From assembly GCA_964406895.1 (NCBI GenBank), contig CAYOTK010000003.1:9529-73528 (forward strand): a stretch of DNA of 64,000 nt. Reading direction: 5' to 3'. The position numbers were made by a program, and so were the translations under genes. Positions 9,215 to 52,829 of this stretch are shown in pieces; positions within the stretch are counted from its first letter, which is position 1; each line of letters starts with the position of its first letter. The stretch comes from an uncultured Candidatus Saccharibacteria bacterium (lineage in GTDB: Bacteria; Patescibacteriota; Minisyncoccia; Phycocordibacterales; PALSA-1337). Below the pieces are notes generated by a model, which did not search any database, was not told the origin of the DNA, and saw only the letters and a program-made list of their open reading frames with translations.

Positions 9215-12200
9215 ATGGACAGCGACGATAGCTACCCACGCCGAACCAGCGACCATAATGATACCAATAAGTTATCTTTCAAAAAGATAATTTTTCTTTT
9301 AGTTGGCATAATGTTCTTGCCTGGCATAGTTTATTCAGCGACTGGCGAGGTGCAGTTCAGTATTGCTTCTCAATATCAAATTGGTACGGCAGGAAGTTAT
9401 TTCAACAACGGCAATACTATTGCAAAAGTTTTCGATGGTGATTTGACTACTTGGTGGGATGCCAACCAATCATATGCGAATGGTTCAAATGTTGGTCTGG
9501 ATCTTACCGTAAATGCCAAGGTTACAAGAATGAGAGTGGCACCAAGAACTGGTTATACCGTGAGATTATTCGGTGCCGTATTGCAGGGAGCGACGGTAAG
9601 TTCAAGTACAGGACCTTGGACAACAATTTATACGATTCCTAGCTTCCCACCGTTCTATCCTCAGAGGCAACTCAATGAGATCTCTATAGATACTTCAGGA
9701 CAATATTACAGATATTATAGATTGGTGATGCCAAACGGGGCATACGGCTCGCTAGCGGAGATGAGATTGATAGGAGTAGCTTCTAGTACGACGCCATATT
9801 TACCAGTGGCGCCAACAATAAGTCCGATGGGAGGGAGGTTTCATCAACCGATACAAGTCAGTCTAAGTAGTCTGACAACAGACGCAACAATTTACTACAC
9901 AACAGATGGTACGACTCCAACATATAGTGGAGGTTCTCCACAAGGGACAACGCAGTTATATTCAGGACCGTTTATGGTAACAAATACTGCGACGACGACC
10001 GTCAAAGCTATTGCAGTTAGTGCTTCAACATATGTTTCTGAAGTTTCTGATACAGCGTATTTCTATATCAATCCATCATTTTATTCAGGCTGGAATTGGT
10101 ATGACACTTCAGGGCACCTCATAGAATCTCACGATGGCGGAATAAGTTATTTCAATGGTAAGTATTATTGGTACGGAGAAACTCTCAATAATAGTTCTCC
10201 CGAAATTGAGACGTTGGGTGCAACAGTTTATTCCTCGAATGACTTGCTCAATTGGAAATATGAAGGAATGGCATTATACGTCAACAATGCCTATAAACTA
10301 GAAAGACCGCATGTAATATACAATGCGACTTCAAGCACTTATGTTATGTGGGCACACAATGTGACGAATGCAAGAGCCGTCATTGCCACATCCAGTTCAC
10401 CGCTTGGACCATTTACAGCGTCTACTACATCTCAAAATCCAGACGGTATGGGCATGAATGATATGACTTTGTACAAGGATACAGACGGGACGGCATATCT
10501 TATATATACTTCAAGTGATAATACAAAGATGGTTATTTCTCGTTTAACGAGTGACTACGCTACTACTTCAAATACTTACATCACCTCATCAGCGAATGCC
10601 AATCGTAGCGCGCCTGCCGTATTCAAACGCGGTAGCATATATTTCTTGCTCAACTCCGGTCAAAACAGTTGGACAGCTACCGCCAATAAATATTCGACTT
10701 CAACAAGTATGTTGGGTACTTGGTCGACCCTTACAAATCCATTCCAATCAAGTGCAGAAGAAGATTATACTTTGGCCTATCATTCTCAAACCACTGATGT
10801 TCTTACGGTGCAGGGCAGAACAGATGGTTATGTATATATAGGCGACAGATTCGATGGTTCTGCGACCGCCTCGGGTTCTCTTTATAACAGTAGACATGTT
10901 TGGTTACCAATTACATTTCCTTATGCAGGAATGATGTCCATATCTTGGGCAAGTAGCTGGAGTTTGGACAGTGCATTTACTTCAGCGACCCTGCCAACTT
11001 CAGTTTCCAATCTTACAGCGACCAAAAACGGTTTATCAGTCAATCTTTCTTGGACTAACAATGAAACAAATTCATATAGCTTGTATTTGGATAGGGCTAC
11101 TGATAGTGCATTTACTCAAAATTTCATTTCAATATTTGCAAGTACAACTTTGAGTTCGTATACAGATTCAAATATCGTTAATGATACAAAATATTATTAT
11201 CGAATTCGAGTTATCACTGCGGCCGGGGTCAGCACATCATCGACTGTTATCGGTGATTTCTTACTATCTTCAGATACCACGGCTCCACAAGGCGAAATAA
11301 CAGTTCCGAGCAATGGAGCAACTGTGGTAGGCAGAACTGTTACACTTACTGCCTCTTCTTCAGATAATATTCAGGTCAGTTCTGTCCAATTCCAAGTCGA
11401 TAATGTAAACGTGGGTTCTTCCGGTGCAACATCGCCATATTCTATAACTTGGGATTCTACATCTGTATCAGACGGAGATCACACTATTCATGTTGTTGTA
11501 ACAGATAGTTCAGGCAATATCGCTACTTCAAGCGACGTAACTGTTCATGTTGCCAATCAGACTGTTACTGTAACTCCCGATGTCTCTACAATAGTCCAGA
11601 ATACAACCGGCAATACTATTGTTATAACAGGTAATGCGACATCATGGACGCCAGGCACTCCAGGTTCACCAACATTTAGTATAAGTGGGGGAACAGGTAC
11701 AACAATTACTAGTCAGACAGTTTCCAATAGCACAACAGCCACCCTAACTATTTCAGCGGGAAGTGCTGTTGGTACTTTCAAGATAATAGCGCCCGATAGT
11801 AATGCTTCAACAACTATAACTGTTTCGGCGGATACCATCGCACCTTTAGTTAGTATTACAACGCCGTCAGATGGCGCAACTCTTTCTGGATCAACTGTTA
11901 CTCTTACAGCATCGTCATCCGACAATGCAGCGGTTACAAGTGTTCAGTTCAAATTAGACAATGTAAGTATCGGTTCTTCAGGTGCAACATCGCCATATTC
12001 TATTACCTGGAATTCAACATCGGTGTCGGATGGTACCCACACTTTGGTTGCTGTCGTTGCGGACGGAGCAGGGAATATAAGTTCTTCTACAGCTATCAGT
12101 GTAACCATCAACAATTCTGTTGTGGCTTCTGTTTCGACATCAAACGCTTCATCCGTAGATATGTTTTCGGCTGTATTCAATGGTGTTATTTCAAATGATG

Positions 12201-34074: not shown

Positions 34075-34087
34075 TATAAACAAAAAA

Positions 34088-34116
34088 CCCCTCGACAAGC
34101 TCGAGGGGTTTTTTGT
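34088..34116. terminator. bidirectional terminator between convergent rplI and rpmA
   Basis: aaaaaa-cccctcga-caagc-tcgagggg-ttttttg. Confidence 0.6.
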
Positions 34117-34127
34117 TTGTTGATTTA

Positions 34128-49847: not shown

Positions 49848-49878
49848 GGTTGTTAATGATTAAGTTTTTAAATTTATA

Positions 49879-49914
49879 TTGACAACTAATAGTTATTGAC
49901 TTACAATTGTGTTG
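49879..49914 (+). promoter_or_regulatory. consensus sigma70-type promoter
   Basis: TTGACA-N17-TACAAT. Confidence 0.5.
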
Positions 49915-49935
49915 AACCCTAAACCAACTGATCAC

Positions 49936-50073
49936 ATGATTGCCACGATATTGGCCGATCTCCTTTCAAATCCCTTCGTATATCTGGAAGCGTTCATAGT
50001 TGGGGCGCTGATCTGGACGCTCATGGGCTTCCCCGAATTTTGGACGCGCAAGTTCTGGGATCGCAAATCATAG
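49936..50073 (+). CDS. 45-aa hydrophobic peptide in a high-GC island
   Basis: MIATILADLLSNPFVYLEAFIVGALIWTLMGFPEFWTRKFWDRKS. A promoter lies upstream and a terminator downstream. Below the ORF-track cutoff. Confidence 0.35.
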   Translation: MIATILADLLSNPFVYLEAFIVGALIWTLMGFPEFWTRKFWDRKS

Positions 50074-50097
50074 CGCGTCTTGTCCCATTTCACTCGT

Positions 50098-50133
50098 CCG
50101 ACTGGCGTCATGCTGGTCGGGCGGCTTTTTTTT
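50098..50133 (+). terminator. rho-independent terminator
   Basis: ccgactggc-gtcat-gctggtcgg followed by gcggcttttttttt. Confidence 0.45.
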
Positions 50134-50217
50134 ACAACGAACTTACTAATCCACAAAGTTCTATCTCGCAAAGTTGATCCTTGAATTTATCTTATTTTTC
50201 CTAATTATTTCCAACAT

Positions 50218-50253
50218 TGACAAATAGGGTCAAATAATGCTATAATGCTTGCA
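50218..50253 (+). promoter_or_regulatory. consensus sigma70-type promoter
   Basis: TTGACA-N18-TATAAT. Confidence 0.5.
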
Positions 50254-50351
50254 GTTTTAACATCGCTCTTTGACCAAAATGTAGACTGCGGAAGTGAGGG
50301 TAACGAGGCAACGACGTCTCGCATCTTCACAAACCGCGGTTTACCAAACTT

Positions 50352-50603
50352 ATGGAAACTTTACTGTCGATTTTGTCTCTGAGTTTCATTCTCTTTGTGG
50401 CTTTATTCGGCTCTGTCACCGGATTTTGTCGCTGTGCGAAGTGCAAGAGTTGGAATGTCAGGTACCGAGTTGGTCGGAGTTTCGATAACCACCATCCCGA
50501 TCACTACTGGAGGAGTGAATATTTCTTGTGCAAAAAATGTGGGACGGAAACTCAGATCAGCCATAGTCTGGAAAGACAAAGCGACTCCCCATTTTTTGAT
50601 TGA
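50352..50603 (+). CDS. 83-aa protein with an N-terminal TM and a 4-Cys zinc-ribbon-like region
   Basis: CRCAKC...CKKC spacing, in a high-GC island. A terminator lies at 50638-50665. Confidence 0.4.
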   Translation: METLLSILSLSFILFVALFGSVTGFCRCAKCKSWNVRYRVGRSFDNHHPDHYWRSEYFLCKKCGTETQISHSLERQSDSPFFD

Positions 50604-50637
50604 GATCGCCCACTTTCAGGGCAGAATGTAACTCCGA

Positions 50638-50665
50638 AGCCGTGCGCAAGTGCGGCTTTTGTTTT
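50638..50665 (+). terminator. rho-independent terminator
   Basis: agccgtgc-gcaa-gtgcggct followed by tttgtttt. Confidence 0.4.
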
Positions 50666-50701
50666 ACCTTATTTGTCATTTCAATGAACTTACCAATCCA
50701 C

Positions 50702-50735
50702 GAGGTCGGACCTCTAAAAGGTCCGACCTAAAAAA
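50702..50735. repeat. palindromic repeat element copy 2 (GGTCGGACC-tctaaaa-GGTCCGACC)
   Basis: Near-identical to the copy at 397-429. It lies just 3' of an island ORF terminator, as copy 1 does. Confidence 0.55.
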
Positions 50736-50799
50736 TTAGAAAGCAGGCGCTCTTATTTTTATATTAGTTAAAAGATAAAGTGAAGAATAAGGAGAAACT

Positions 50800-50943
50800 A
50801 TGTCACTTGTATCAAACCAAGAAATGTCAGTTGTATTTGAAATACATGTAGGACAAGGTAATGAGAAACGATTGACTTTGTTTTGTGCGGTTGAACATGG
50901 ATCTGCCTTGAGCGATATGACTGGCTCTATGGAAAGAATATGA
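50800..50943 (+). CDS. 47-aa ORF with a strong Shine-Dalgarno, in an AT-rich segment
   Basis: AAGGAG 7 nt before the ATG. It overlaps the next ORF by ATGA. Confidence 0.3.
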   Translation: MSLVSNQEMSVVFEIHVGQGNEKRLTLFCAVEHGSALSDMTGSMERI

Positions 50944-51131
50944 CCCTTGAGTACGCCGTCGATCTCATAGACTTCGAATCTGACACGCACCAAAGAGCCG
51001 TTGTTATCTGTAACAACTCTGGTGAATATTCCCTTCTGGTTTATATTAGAAATACTGAGCATGTTCTCATTTTACTAGAATGTGGGCGGAGGTCAAGTCA
51101 ATTTATACAAAATCCCCGACCGATCGGTTGA
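50940..51131 (+). CDS. 63-aa ORF translationally coupled to the previous ORF
   Basis: ATGA overlap. It ends inside a GC-rich hairpin. Confidence 0.3.
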   Translation: MTLEYAVDLIDFESDTHQRAVVICNNSGEYSLLVYIRNTEHVLILLECGRRSSQFIQNPRPIG

Positions 51132-51147
51132 ACCGAAGGGCCGGGGG
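51100..51147 (-). terminator. GC-rich hairpin terminator for the minus-strand two-gene operon
   Basis: ccccgacc-gatcggttgaaccgaag-ggccgggg stem, with a T-rich tract 3' on the minus strand. Confidence 0.4.
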
Positions 51148-51193
51148 TGACAGAATTACCGTATGGATCTCACCTTGTCAACAGCATCGAACT

Positions 51194-51586
51194 TTACCTC
51201 AAAGACGCTAGAAGACCACTCACACTTGACGAGGTAACCGAAAGGGTGAATTCATCGTCAGTCGAAATTACTTCAAGTGTCCACAGTGGTGATTGAAGCT
51301 TGATGGTTCCGCCTCCACCAACACCATGCACGCCAGAGACCGTTATTTCTTGCGCGTGCACAGAGGGAAGACCAAGTTCGGGCAACTTGCTCACCAACTG
51401 ACCTAGGGGTGTACAGCCAAGCTCGGTCAGAGCACTGTCAATGTTGTGTCCGTTCGGCATCAGATTTGGCGTCTCGTTCGCAATCGCTACTTGTTCGAAT
51501 AACTGCAGGAACTCTGCCATTTGGACAGCTTGAGAGTTCCCACCATCCAACAATTTCAACAGGTTGATATTTGTTTGCATAACCAT
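51194..51586 (-). CDS. hypothetical 130-aa protein with a Gly-rich loop (GVHGVGGGGT), in a high-GC island
   Basis: Second gene of a two-gene minus-strand operon. No family recognised. Confidence 0.45.
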   Translation of the reverse strand: MVMQTNINLLKLLDGGNSQAVQMAEFLQLFEQVAIANETPNLMPNGHNIDSALTELGCTPLGQLVSKLPELGLPSVHAQEITVSGVHGVGGGGTIKLQSPLWTLEVISTDDEFTLSVTSSSVSGLLASLR

Positions 51587-51592
51587 ACTCCT

Positions 51593-51904
51593 TCACTTAT
51601 TCCTCCGGGGTGAGCCGGGGAACTTAGTTGTTAGCAACACTTCCAATTTCTCCGCGCCGTGCGGGGAGTTGAGTATTGCTGTGAGTGCACCAAGAGAATC
51701 CTTTCCGTGGTCCCGAATCGCGCATGCATACCAGCGTCCAGCTTTCGCTTTCTTCTGGCTTCCGGTGTATTTAAACACCAGTGCATATGCTTTTGTGGGA
51801 CTTGAAGCAGATTCAACAAGGTTGAGCAATTTAGGACAAGTCCAAATTGCCTTGGAGCGTGTCAGATAACCAATGATTTCGACAGCGTCGTCCTCAGAGT
51901 ACAT
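51593..51904 (-). CDS. hypothetical 103-aa basic protein in a high-GC island
   Basis: First gene of the operon. A TTGTAA-N17-TG-TATAAT promoter and an AGGAA SD lie upstream on the minus strand (~51925-51985). Confidence 0.45.
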   Translation of the reverse strand: MYSEDDAVEIIGYLTRSKAIWTCPKLLNLVESASSPTKAYALVFKYTGSQKKAKAGRWYACAIRDHGKDSLGALTAILNSPHGAEKLEVLLTTKFPGSPRRNK

Positions 51905-52056
51905 GACGTGTTCCTTTCCTTTTCAAAGTGCCATTCAGAATGATGTTCCAAATACAGCTGTATCTGGCATTCTTACTGACAGTAATTATAACACGAGATT
52001 AAATATATTACAAGTCATAAAACATTCGAATATACCATCTTATTTTTTACGCTTAA

Positions 52057-52205
52057 GAAGCACCTGCATATACTTTTTGCACTCACCGCAAAATCGCCAT
52101 TCCAAATTGCAACCGTATTCGCTTCCACGGCTTCAGCGAATACGGGCAATTTGTTCATGGCTCAATCGCATTGCGGTGAGTGCAAAAAGTATATGCAGGT
52201 GCTTC
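52057..52205. repeat. 35-bp perfect inverted repeat with nested inner inverted repeats, forming a ~150-nt extended hairpin (MITE-like or structured-RNA element)
   Basis: Left arm 52057-52091 (gaagcacctgcatatactttttgcactcaccgcaa) is the exact reverse complement of the right arm 52171-52205. Inner pairs are caaattgc/gcaatttg and ccgtattcgc/gcgaatacgg around a 13-nt loop. Confidence 0.7.
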
Positions 52206-52232
52206 TCTACCCAATGTAAAAAATAGATGTAA

Positions 52233-52829
52233 TTAACTCCTAAACTCCCCAACCTTAACTCTCGGCGCCTTGAGTAACTTACCATTCAATGAGTAACCTT
52301 TTTGCAATACCTGTATAACAACTTGATCTTGTTTTTTGTCATCAACAGCAACGTGTTCAATCGCCTCATCTCTGTTGTGATCGAATTTTTCGCCTATAGG
52401 ATTGACTTCCTTCCAGCCATTTTCTCCGAGAACTTTCTTGAGTTGATTGTAGATATATTCGACACCTACACGCCAATTTTTGTCGACTTTCTCCCATGAT
52501 TCCTTGTTACCAATAGCCATGTCGAAACTTTCTAGGACAGGAATAAGGTCGCCAACAAGTCCTTCATTGGCATATTTCATGAATTCAGTGCGGTCAGCTT
52601 CATCACGCTTGCGAGCATTGATGAGATCTGCCTTGGCTCTTTGCCAACCGGTCAAATACTCTAGTTTCTCTGTTTCGGCTTTCTTAAGTTTTTCTTTGAG
52701 TGTCTTGATGATCTCTTTTGCGCTTTCTTCCGCCACGACAGAATCATCTACATTATCCGAATCAGTGTCGGATGAAATGTCAGCATCAATTTCAGGAACA
52801 ATATCTTTGTCGTCTAAATTATTGGCCAT
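52233..52829 (-). CDS. grpE: nucleotide exchange factor GrpE
   Basis: Coiled-coil N-terminus and a GrpE C-terminal domain (LIPVLESFDMA...). Confidence 0.9.
   Translation of the reverse strand: MANNLDDKDIVPEIDADISSDTDSDNVDDSVVAEESAKEIIKTLKEKLKKAETEKLEYLTGWQRAKADLINARKRDEADRTEFMKYANEGLVGDLIPVLESFDMAIGNKESWEKVDKNWRVGVEYIYNQLKKVLGENGWKEVNPIGEKFDHNRDEAIEHVAVDDKKQDQVVIQVLQKGYSLNGKLLKAPRVKVGEFRS

Follow-up and report, generated by a model that had tools for sequence, protein, structure and literature searches.

The long hairpin immediately downstream of grpE in the window (the whole stretch of DNA that was analysed, 64 kb in length) appears to be a known kind of bacterial repeat in a new lineage. 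On balance it probably belongs to a small family of foldback intergenic repeats, confined to a Paceibacteria-like clade of Patescibacteria, recombination-prone and similar to the Correia elements. Each copy of this family would combine a conserved hairpin core with fast-evolving complementary arms, which are here perfect over 36 bp. An inversion, a deletion, the insertion of a cassette and exchanges of neighbouring genes all fall at the element, and related copies are present at a second locus, upstream of adk. The genomes of Patescibacteria are tiny and usually called repeat-poor; yet a hairpin-forming repeat is present in them and marks sites of structural change. No description of a palindromic repeat family in Patescibacteria (CPR) was found in the published literature.

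The hairpin in the grpE 3′ untranslated region

Both the repeat finder and the folds show that the near-perfect long hairpin described near grpE by the initial annotation is real. It lies within the 3′ untranslated region of grpE, where the nearer arm starts 26 nt past the stop codon. The features of the region, from grpE outwards, are as follows.

52233–52829, minus strand: grpE (Pfam E = 2.5e-36)
52216–52225: outer AT-rich extension GTAAAAAATA, grpE side (repeat finder)
52171–52206: right arm, perfect 36-nt repeat, the 5′ arm in grpE-sense RNA (repeat finder)
52092–52170, minus strand: conserved 79-nt core that forms an imperfect hairpin; the minus strand of the window (grpE-sense) counts as its "forward" strand
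52096–52100 with 52157–52161: core stem P3, 5 bp, GCCAT/ATGGC (RNA and ssDNA folds)
52103–52110 with 52146–52153: core stem P4, 8 bp, CAAATTGC/GCAATTTG (repeat finder)
52113–52123 with 52135–52145: core stem P5, 11 bp, CCGTATTCGCT/AGCGAATACGG (repeat finder)
52124–52134, minus strand: apical loop, 11 nt, GAAGCCGUGGA (folds and cross-form comparison)
52056–52091: left arm, perfect 36-nt repeat, the 3′ arm in grpE-sense RNA (repeat finder)
52041–52050: outer AT-rich extension TATTTTTTAC, dnaK side, pairing with 52216–52225
51099–52044, minus strand: strain-specific two-gene cassette, 946 bp, absent in the relative L043 and not part of the element
52013–51985: cassette promoter, TTGTAA-17-TATAAT (promoter scan)
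51593–51904: cassette ORF of 103 aa
51194–51586: cassette ORF of 130 aa

The arms are 100% complementary and enclose 79 nt. The initial annotation had rightly called them perfect, although at 35 nt it made each of them one base too short; similarly, its 8-bp inner stem stands as P4, its 10-bp stem is extended to the 11 bp of P5, and its 13-nt loop has to be replaced by an apical loop of 11 nt. A purine-rich internal loop (GAA/GA on the minus strand) sits between P3 and P4, and the apical loop, taken with the pairs that close it, makes up the motif GCTGAAGCC(G/T)TGGAAGC, which is common to the short and long forms of the element described below. The GCCAT/ATGGC stem and the outer AT-rich pair, whose dnaK-side half is partly the end of the inserted cassette, extend the structure to a quasi-palindrome of ~185 nt. 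The arm sequence occurs at these two places only in the window, where none would be expected by chance, and one other inverted repeat of at least 18 nt exists in the 64 kb, an ordinary terminator at 34078–34118. An assembly artefact is ruled out because the hairpin is crossed without a break in JGI and ENA assemblies made independently from other samples.

Predicted folds bear out the proposed structure, at about -110 kcal/mol with a z-score of about -16. The exact values are -109.8 kcal/mol for the minus-strand RNA (z = -15.6), -101.1 kcal/mol for the plus-strand RNA (z = -18.9) and -70.8 kcal/mol for single-stranded DNA (z = -16.4), with 0 of 200 shuffles as good in each of the three cases. 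The structure is far beyond chance.

The two-gene cassette is inserted directly 3′ of the hairpin and also carries a terminator-like hairpin with a short T-run; its proteins gave no family matches in defence, phage, NCBIfam and Pfam searches. In L043, which is 97% identical to the window, the hairpin is present while 51099–52044 is absent and replaced by ~15 nt. The hairpin is therefore part of the conserved backbone and older than the cassette, and its placement "between grpE and the island", correct as a position, is misleading as a boundary role. The window copy would be an old resident of the grpE 3′ untranslated region, lying outside the neighbouring island.

Open reading frames run across the element. 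The 117-aa ORF at 51873–52226, dismissed as spurious from the start, is indeed present, has no family match and is almost certainly spurious since it spans both the hairpin and the cassette promoter. A small-protein gene (MNKLPVF...) was likewise considered and rejected: both loop substitutions are non-synonymous, the C-terminus differs at every copy, the ATG is changed to ATA in L035, and gene calls for most contigs do not include it. The plus-strand ORF frame had no word matches among 5.8 billion proteins, the MNKLPVF frame matched only an ORF of L036 among 1.84 billion representatives, and cluster look-ups of the spurious ORFs returned singletons only; a census through these ORFs yields no estimate of copy number.

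Copies, conservation and rearrangements at the grpE and adk loci

The hairpin is syntenic 3′ of grpE in the lineages of 98%, 83–84% and 79% GrpE identity. Between the window and the 83–84% clade, the element is 92% identical and its core 94–96%, compared with 79.7% for grpE and 82.6% for the gene encoding a 108-aa protein, and the spacer between the grpE stop codon and the arm is not alignable. The core of the window is also 94–96% identical to that of the adk-locus copy in L019, and core identity over loci and clades is 94–98%. In an alignment of six copies, the stems P3, P4 and P5 are invariant. The three core stems show no covariation, and their structure is thus without independent support from this source.

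Conservation of the element is lowest in the arms: these have largely decayed in L019, differ in the adk variants, and are perfect over 36 bp within the strain group of the window only (the window, L002, L004 and L005). Their changes are nevertheless paired. Comparison of the grpE-type with the adk-type copies reveals six arm pairs in which both partners differ, and three differences between L013 and the window appear in mirrored form in the two arms. Position 52070, which pairs with 52192, is polymorphic (A in the window, G in L003 and L008), and the pair occurs in three states, as A-U in the window, A.C in L003 and L008, and G-C in L043, where both positions have changed. Complementarity of the arms might be kept by compensatory change or, alternatively, by intrastrand template switching, with one arm serving as the model for the other.

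Within the 83–84% clade, every one of the 12 core-spanning contigs carries the entire unit in inverted orientation, with alignment scores for the reverse complement of 139 (143 in L027) against 45 for the forward orientation; there it is antisense to grpE and the genes further downstream. Neither clade shows a mixture: the orientation is the same in 12 of 12 contigs on one side and, on the other, in all six full copies (the window, L002–L005 and L043). In L012 the element has been lost through an imprecise internal deletion (AGAAGCACCTGCATGTAC joined to TTCT, with a CTT microhomology at the junction) from which 18 nt of one arm survive; the cassette spot adjoining the element is filled by other DNA. 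The 70% relative carries no element after grpE; other genes are found there, which leave no room for it. L022 was considered as a further rearrangement and set aside, being colinear with L013. A Xer-like integrase is encoded upstream of grpE in L002–L004 and L010; the island that carries it meets the chromosome at ~52922, at the 3′ end of rpsI and ~700 nt from the hairpin, and is absent from the window.

The second locus lies directly upstream of adk, where the core, 96–98% identical, is found in L019 and L031–L042. The case that the initial annotation had named as leaving only a terminator or structural role, a single-copy unit with no relatives elsewhere, therefore does not hold. Its copies upstream of adk come in short (~150 nt) and long (~330 nt) forms; the short form measures ~150–185 nt overall, and both have the apical loop in common. 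The core of the short form measures 79 nt; the long form has ~160 nt of additional stem beneath the shared loop. An origin of the long form as a nested self-copy was rejected, given that its inner arms match the short element no better than shuffled sequences do. The adk-locus copies lie upstream of the promoter, inside what is normally a secY-adk operon, and are followed by GGTG-TTTTC. Copy number appears low, with one copy in the window and two loci known so far.

The surroundings of the adk-locus copies are variable. Three kinds of left-hand neighbour are found (secY, pgk or grpE), and the adk genes of L035 (long form, pgk on the left) and L036 (short form, grpE on the left) are 100% identical. 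The right arm and adk promoter occur as two variants, each common to adk groups that are just 79% identical; L019 and L040 are identical at 119 of 120 positions over the element and promoter, after which identity decays inside adk. The grpE and adk loci co-occur in samples JGI 3300045377, DRR235452 and ERZ28656156. In L036 an assembly chimera may account for the grpE-adk junction, although the stretch common to the two loci is shorter than a read. The element has practical consequences for assembly and annotation, as the De Bruijn assemblies of Logan (k = 31) are interrupted precisely there, one 22-kb contig joins the two loci through it, and gene callers put spurious ORFs across it.

The two strands of the element are not equivalent. 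The forward strand, which has the sense of the flanking genes, outfolds its complement in every copy, by 1–21 kcal/mol, and in three copies its G.U appositions outnumber the A.C ones by 10 to 3, 7 to 1 and 5 to 0. The long form keeps two tandem G.A/A.G mismatches as well as the purine-rich internal loops. Taken together, the fold bias, the G.U excess and the tandem G.A pairs suggest that one single strand is under constraint, something for which a double-stranded DNA palindrome that is purely selfish would have no need.

A Correia-like family would act at two levels. As DNA, the element would be a recombination-prone palindrome whose conserved core offers homology between loci and genomes, from which flips, deletions, exchanges of flanks and adjacent insertions could follow. 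As RNA, it would be transcribed as the tail of the grpE mRNA and fold into a rod of ~75 bp; by analogy with the Correia elements, this rod might serve as an RNase III-type substrate or as a barrier to 3′-exonucleases, uncoupling grpE from the genes that follow. If this RNA-level reading is true, the element offers a natural test case for RNase III-type gene uncoupling in genetically intractable organisms.

Alternative readings of the element

It is possible, if doubtful, that the hairpin is instead a selected cis-acting structured RNA module of 3′ untranslated or intercistronic regions (serving processing, stability or the 3′ end, or acting as a protein-binding rod) that has been reused after grpE and before adk. 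Such selection would account for a core that, at orthologous positions, exceeds the flanking genes in conservation, for arms that stay paired by two-sided changes as their sequence drifts, for the better folding everywhere of the strand co-directional with the flanking genes and the preference for G.U over A.C in diverged copies, and for features that the forms retain, namely the purine-rich internal loops and two tandem G.A/A.G mismatches of the long form and the apical loop motif common to both. From the sequences compared, core conservation above that of protein-coding genes could indeed result from vertical inheritance with purifying selection on a function instead. However, the near-identity that reaches into the adk promoter while adk is 79% identical resembles what lateral exchange, not selection, would leave; the 83–84% clade carries the unit antisense to grpE and the downstream genes, in 12 contigs; the unit is deleted in L012 and has no room in the 70% relative; the three core stems lack covariation; and a perfect 36-bp stem is atypical for folded functional RNAs. 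No Rfam family matches it: at gathering thresholds only a tRNA was detected in the window, and permissive scans with the short and long forms gave generic long-hairpin matches far below threshold. The initial annotation's proposal of a structured RNA that ends the grpE transcript is consequently still a candidate with some support, with the paired arms, their two-sided changes and the G.U excess on its side and the antisense orientation in one clade against it. An improbable extension of the single-strand constraint is that the core is a new kind of module, either a protein- or nuclease-bound RNA rod or a lagging-strand ssDNA hairpin for an HUH-type or other recombinase, that moves between operon junctions and genomes and actively reshuffles the gene order of these very small genomes. 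The features cited for such a module are the fixed 11-nt apical loop, the purine-rich internal loops and the tandem G.A pairs of the long form.

That the hairpin is an unusually strong intrinsic terminator or insulator ending the grpE transcript would suit its position directly after the grpE stop codon, the lack of a canonical terminator from grpE to the promoter that follows it in the window, L043 and L013, and the GGTG-TTTTC that follows the adk-locus copies. This is nonetheless hardly probable. On both strands a T-run precedes the stem and an A-run follows it, the reverse of a terminator, and the terminator scan does not call the hairpin; a terminator has no need of the conserved 79-nt core sequence, and the adk-locus copy lies upstream of a promoter inside the usual secY-adk operon. 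The "super-terminator" of the initial annotation is thereby left unsupported, with no U-tract on either strand and with the genuine terminators of the window being of a different make, short G+C-rich stems followed by T-runs. Practically no weight is left for an HrcA/CIRCE-like heat-shock operator, the consensus of which is TTAGCACTC-N9-GAGTGCTAA. The arms contain TTGCACTC/GAGTGCAA, which resembles the half-sites, and the grpE-dnaK region would be a fitting place; but these half-sites are 93 nt apart rather than 9, no match with up to 3 mismatches occurs anywhere in the window, the motif is missing from the adk-type arms, and the element is downstream of grpE, not at its promoter. Judged by the spacing and by the absence of the motif from other copies, this reading appears effectively refuted. 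A resemblance to domain V of group II introns (CCGUAU...AUACGG) was rejected as coincidental on the grounds of helix lengths, bulge position and the lack of an Rfam match.

A classical MITE, moved by cut-and-paste in a non-autonomous manner by a transposase encoded elsewhere that binds the 36-bp terminal inverted repeats, is very unlikely, even though long terminal inverted repeats, a size of 150–185 bp, an intergenic position, related copies at a second locus and the occurrence of both orientations all fit. Variation is greatest at the termini and conservation greatest in the interior, opposite to the pattern of MITEs bound by a transposase, and the sole loss among close relatives, in L012, is an imprecise internal deletion and not a clean empty site. 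The initial annotation saw no obvious target-site duplication, and this holds at every copy examined at the grpE and adk loci; the element is flanked by GGTAG and TAAGCG in the window and by GGAGA and TAAGCG in L013, with no direct repeat. The arm was found nowhere else in the collections scanned: its exact pattern had 0 matches in viral contigs and in metagenome contigs (a collection without the source samples), and one in GTDB genome contigs, a 21-nt chance match with no inverted partner. The 206-bp region has no BLAST match to phages or plasmids, and viral contig scans returned nothing for the core and the long-form apex. Of the MITE-like proposal, the related copies at the adk locus survive, whereas a target-site duplication, conserved termini and a clean empty site are missing. 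Since no transposase, target-site duplication or clean empty site was found for the known copies, recombination between resident copies stays an alternative to mobility.

A site-specific recombination site, be it a phase-switch inverton or the attachment or cassette site of the tyrosine recombinase adjoining grpE in some strains, is most improbable. The two orientations seen between clades, the cassette directly 3′ in the window strain with other DNA in that spot in L012, and the Xer-like integrase upstream of grpE in L002–L004 and L010 could be cited for it, but orientation is fixed in each clade (12/12 and 6/6) with no sign of switching, and flipping a near-palindromic interior alters little. 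The segment contains no convincing promoter, the lone candidate being a 9/12 match that runs into one arm. The integrase island, besides its distance of ~700 nt from the hairpin and its absence from the window, encodes an integrase that scores 47 bits against an integron-integrase cutoff of 265 bits, and no recombinase is encoded in the hairpin's part of the window. The attC R-box consensus is lacking as well: neither R″ nor R′ boxes (RYYYAAC/GTTRRRY) are found at the element ends, and the arms are perfectly paired. The suggestion of a recombination site or cruciform hence holds in a loose sense only, in that inversion, deletion, insertion and changes of neighbours coincide at the element, with no site-specific recombinase linked to it.

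Comparison with known systems

Template switching during replication at quasipalindromes is an established route to perfect inverted repeats (PMC7202029). It accounts for the mirrored arm changes and for the passage from an imperfect to a perfect repeat; being a mutational mechanism and not an element family, it leaves the conserved core and the second locus unexplained. REPINs, the REP doublets that RAYT transposases mobilise (PMC3116915, PMC3337134), are also long imperfect intergenic hairpins, mostly vertically inherited and persistent in their lineages. They likewise generate no target-site duplication, and their presumed action as a single strand matches the strand asymmetry of the element. 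However, in a REPIN two REP sequences, short and conserved, flank a variable spacer, and a genome carries tens to hundreds of REPINs, whereas the element has a conserved centre and a variable outside.

Rickettsia palindromic elements (RPEs) and enterobacterial ERIC/IRU sequences are palindromic repeats of 100–150 bp that form stable hairpins, with an unclear mechanism of mobility, and sometimes occupy conserved positions across species in small or ordinary genomes. Unlike the element, they are present in many copies, and RPEs also insert in-frame into genes (reviewed in PMC2229807); the element would not be expected to resemble either in sequence. RNase III hairpins such as lambda sib and the T7 intercistronic sites are long stems in 3′ untranslated or intercistronic regions, the cleavage of which sets mRNA stability or separates cistrons. 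They are single-copy and gene-specific, usually contain internal loops, and are neither repeated nor linked to DNA rearrangement.

The Correia elements of Neisseria exceed 100 copies per genome and have 26-bp repeats that are conserved between copies, whereas two loci are known for the present element and its 36-nt arms are poorly conserved from copy to copy. Correia elements duplicate a TA target, and no duplication accompanies the element. Neither an IHF site nor a promoter generated at the ends, both features of Correia elements, was identified in it. The likeness lies in the architecture: Correia elements (CREE or NEMIS, MITE-like; PMC2649163, PMC2229807) are ~105–157 bp long and, like the element, consist of terminal inverted repeats around a conserved core. 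Short and long forms and an intergenic position, often just 5′ or 3′ of genes, are further points in common; Correia elements are co-transcribed with these genes, as the element would be with grpE. With their inverted repeats, conserved core and two size forms, Correia elements are also points of rearrangement, and within mRNA they are targets of RNase III, which binds or cuts them (PMC2649163). Whether their mRNA hairpin is bound or cut depends on the symmetry of the ends, and the fold predicted here, with its perfect 36-bp stem, is compatible with such processing.

A long palindrome downstream of grpE

The window is a piece of Patescibacteria chromosome, whose relatives are labeled Paceibacterota or Parcubacteria by their sources. 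Its minus-strand gene order at this locus is infA, rpsM, rpsK, rpsD, rpoA, rplQ, rplM, rpsI, grpE, and the hairpin, followed by ORFs of 103, 130, and 108 aa, two small plus-strand ORFs, dnaK, and dnaJ. The perfect long inverted repeat described in the initial annotation is real: the repeat search returned two arms that are 100% complementary, although slightly longer (36 nt each) than the 35 nt claimed, and separated by 79 nt. The inner stems were likewise recovered, except that the 10-bp stem has 11 bp and the 13-nt loop 11 nt.

Features of the palindrome and its neighbor
52233-52829, minus strand: grpE (Pfam E = 2.5e-36)
52216-52225 and 52041-52050: outer pair TATTTTTTAC (52041-52050) / GTAAAAAATA (52216-52225), outside the arms
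52056-52091: left arm, 36 nt (repeat search)
52171-52206: right arm, 36 nt (repeat search)
52096-52100 / 52157-52161: core stem, 5 bp
52103-52110 / 52146-52153: core stem, 8 bp
52113-52123 / 52135-52145: core stem, 11 bp
52124-52134: apical loop, 11 nt

With the outer pair, the palindrome spans ~185 nt. The expected fold is borne out by the strong hairpin predicted for both RNA strands (minus, -109.8 kcal/mol, z = -15.6; plus, -101.1 kcal/mol, z = -18.9) and for ssDNA (-70.8 kcal/mol, z = -16.4), none of 200 shuffles folding as well in any of these cases. The arm sequence does not recur in the 64-kb window (0 occurrences expected by chance), and the one other inverted repeat of at least 18 nt in these 64 kb, at 34078-34118, is an ordinary A-run/stem/T-run terminator. 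Independent assemblies from other samples cross the hairpin with identical sequence, which excludes an artefact.

The 117-aa plus-strand ORF that crosses the hairpin was rightly called spurious because it has no family match and runs across a promoter. The "hypothetical proteins" MNKLPVF... annotated over the element in related contigs (73 aa, L032/L033 1474-1695; 45 aa, L036 194-331) are probably spurious; in a collection of 15 billion proteins, both form singleton clusters. Contigs L001, L006, L010, L011, L018, and L037-L042 (Logan assemblies with k = 31 and some from JGI) end or start exactly in the arms or core, and L036 is a 22-kb JGI contig running from adk through the core to grpE; the element breaks up assemblies and may give rise to chimeric joins or bring them to light.

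The grpE locus and its surroundings in relatives

The contig L043, which shares 97.3% DNA identity with the window, has the order rpsI-grpE-hairpin-108-aa gene and lacks the 103- and 130-aa genes. Window positions 51099-52044 (minus strand, 946 bp) stand where L043 has ~15 nt, right after TAAGCGTAAAA and directly 3' of the hairpin. The hairpin had been placed between grpE and an island; the position holds, but the hairpin is no part of the island, since L043 has it without the cassette. By this comparison, the hairpin is older than the cassette and part of the chromosomal backbone. The cassette, carried by the window's strain and by L002-L008 and absent from L043, is self-contained, with a promoter (TTGTAA-17-TATAAT), two orphan ORFs (103 and 130 aa), and a terminator-like hairpin with a short T-run. 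Its proteins have no match in Pfam, PHROGs, PADLOC, or NCBIfam, and the second is a 128-aa variant in L006 and L007. Because relatives keep the small ORFs that lie between the 108-aa gene and dnaK, the strain-specific island comprises only the 946-bp cassette.

The conserved small genes of the grpE-dnaK interval (window 49848-51062; L022 1269-2414) encode a 108-aa protein on the minus strand and, on the opposite strand, a Cys-rich, zinc-ribbon-like membrane protein of 83 aa and a ~45-54-aa hydrophobic protein. Each has a consensus promoter and terminator, and all three are kept in the 84% clade (relatives being named by GrpE identity to the window). Near-perfect plus-strand sigma-70 promoters at 49879-49907 (TTGACA-17-TACAAT) and 50217-50246 (TTGACA-18-TATAAT, extended TG) are predicted to drive the small opposite-strand ORFs, the former overlapping a short near-palindrome, AACTAATAGTT, as well as the region upstream of dnaK. 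The interval reaches ~4 kb in the 70% relative (L029 4597-8596), with an MFS transporter and a DUF2585 protein among other genes, and the 90% relative has a different 150-nt insert after a hairpin remnant (L012 6597-7979); being so variable among relatives, it behaves as an insertion hotspot. L012 also has a HigB/YafQ-like toxin gene (74 aa) with a 59-aa partner in the dnaK-dnaJ gap (9987-10444), neither of which is in the window. On the other side, L002 (1-2732), L003, L004, and L010, with identical or 98% identical GrpE, have grpE without rpsI upstream. Their homology to the window begins at ~52922, the 3' end of rpsI, and the DNA upstream of grpE encodes a 360-aa Xer-like tyrosine recombinase, a DKNYY-domain protein, and, on the reverse strand, a small ORF, which suggests insertion of an integrase-bearing island at that point; the enzyme is a generic Xer-like recombinase and not an integron integrase. 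Cumulative GC skew peaks near 47 kb in the window and drops through the dnaK-ribosomal protein region, which could mark a change in replication direction or a run of highly expressed minus-strand genes.

The hairpin is identical in L002, L004, and L005 (same strain, other samples), and arm perfection is specific to these and the window; the arm stem is interrupted by an internal loop in L043, by a mismatch in L003, and by a bulge in L013, of the 83-84% clade. One arm pair exists in three states, A-U in the window, A.C in L003/L008 (changed at 52070), and G-C in L043, where both members are changed. L003/L008 also have nine more differences packed into the 70 nt directly downstream, and L003 could just as well be a recombinant that crossed over within the element. 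In the 83-84% clade, the element occupies the same position flipped in 12/12 core-spanning contigs (alignment scores to the window's of 139-143 for the reverse complement vs 45 forward), with three arm differences mirrored in both arms and one 1-nt bulge. The 79% relative has the core in the window's orientation, its contig stopping within it. In the 90% relative L012, an imprecise deletion left AGAAGCACCTGCATGTAC joined to TTCT, the junction showing a CTT microhomology, and in the 70% relative, grpE and a convergent MFS gene are just 35 nt apart, leaving no room for the element. The aligned loci thus establish both flip and deletion. Comparison of the window with the 83-84% clade gives identities of 92% for the element, 94-96% for its core, 79.7% for grpE, and 82.6% for the 108-aa gene; the spacer from grpE stop to arm is unalignable.

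A second locus at adk and signs of exchange

A core scan located the 79-nt core between the pgk 3' end and adk in L019, with one indel and two substitutions relative to the window and largely decayed arms. The element lies directly upstream of adk in every context of Adk relatives examined, either in this short form (L019, L036, L039-L042) or in a long form of ~330 nt (L031-L033, left neighbor secY; L035, left neighbor pgk). The comparison thereby demonstrates a second locus and two forms. In the long form, predicted to fold at -123 to -166 kcal/mol, ~80 nt of extra stem per side separate the core stems from the apical loop motif GCTGAAGCC(G/T)TGGAAGC, which both forms share; these extra arms are unrelated in sequence to the short element and are not a copy of it. 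L036 runs from the 3' end of grpE into a left arm of grpE type and on through the core into an adk-type right arm, and its two arms do not pair with one another. Both loci co-occur in samples JGI 3300045377, DRR235452, and ERZ28656156, and therefore the clade's genomes probably hold both copies.

The adk genes of L035 (long form, pgk left) and L036 (short form, grpE left) are 100% identical. The right arm and adk promoter come in two variants, each found in both adk groups, which are only 79% identical in adk, and L019 and L040 agree at 119/120 positions from -139 to -20, identity decaying inside adk. These patterns indicate recent exchange or gene conversion of an element-bearing segment, which partly accounts for the high core conservation without need for selection. 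A TT/CC dimorphism at the base of the core likewise recurs across loci and clades. The element is clearly associated, across the contigs compared, with changes of neighboring genes, and recombination between copies may cause such rearrangements.

Nature of the element

The initial observation stands, and its interpretation is supported in part. A MITE-like element had been proposed, but a classical MITE does not fit, for there is neither a target-site duplication nor a clean empty site and the termini are the least conserved part. The proposed super-terminator or insulator is not supported either: on each strand, the stem has a T-run before it and an A-run after it, and scanning for terminators gives no call here. 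Orientation fixed within each clade and the lack of a convincing internal promoter speak against a fast inverton; an integron attC site and a CIRCE operator were also rejected. The element matches no Rfam family, and searches of viral contigs, phages, and plasmids gave no copy of it.

The evidence best supports membership in a family of palindromic intergenic repeats restricted to this lineage; the main rival reading, with which this one is compatible, is a selected RNA function. Across six distinct short-form copies, 24 core pairs are invariant and six arm-stem pairs are changed on both sides with pairing retained, which documents covariation in the arms at the level of the alignment. Mirrored arm changes and strain-specific perfection fit either compensatory evolution or quasipalindrome template switching (PMC7202029). 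Every copy has a more stable fold on the strand that runs in the direction of the flanking genes than on the complementary strand, the difference being 1 to 21 kcal/mol. On that strand, G.U appositions outnumber A.C appositions (10 to 3 in L035, 7 to 1 in L032, 5 to 0 in L019), counts that are small, partly shared by descent, and reliant on predicted folds. Two tandem G.A/A.G mismatches are conserved in the long form. These features fit a constraint acting on a single strand, which could be the mRNA or the lagging-strand template, but a strict sense-RNA requirement is contradicted by the flipped 83-84% clade. If transcribed, the hairpin would be processed by RNase III or block exonucleases.

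The closest analogue of this repeat family is the Neisseria Correia element, in which inverted repeats surround a conserved core, short and long forms exist, copies lie at rearrangement points, and the mRNA hairpin is bound or cleaved by RNase III (PMC2649163).
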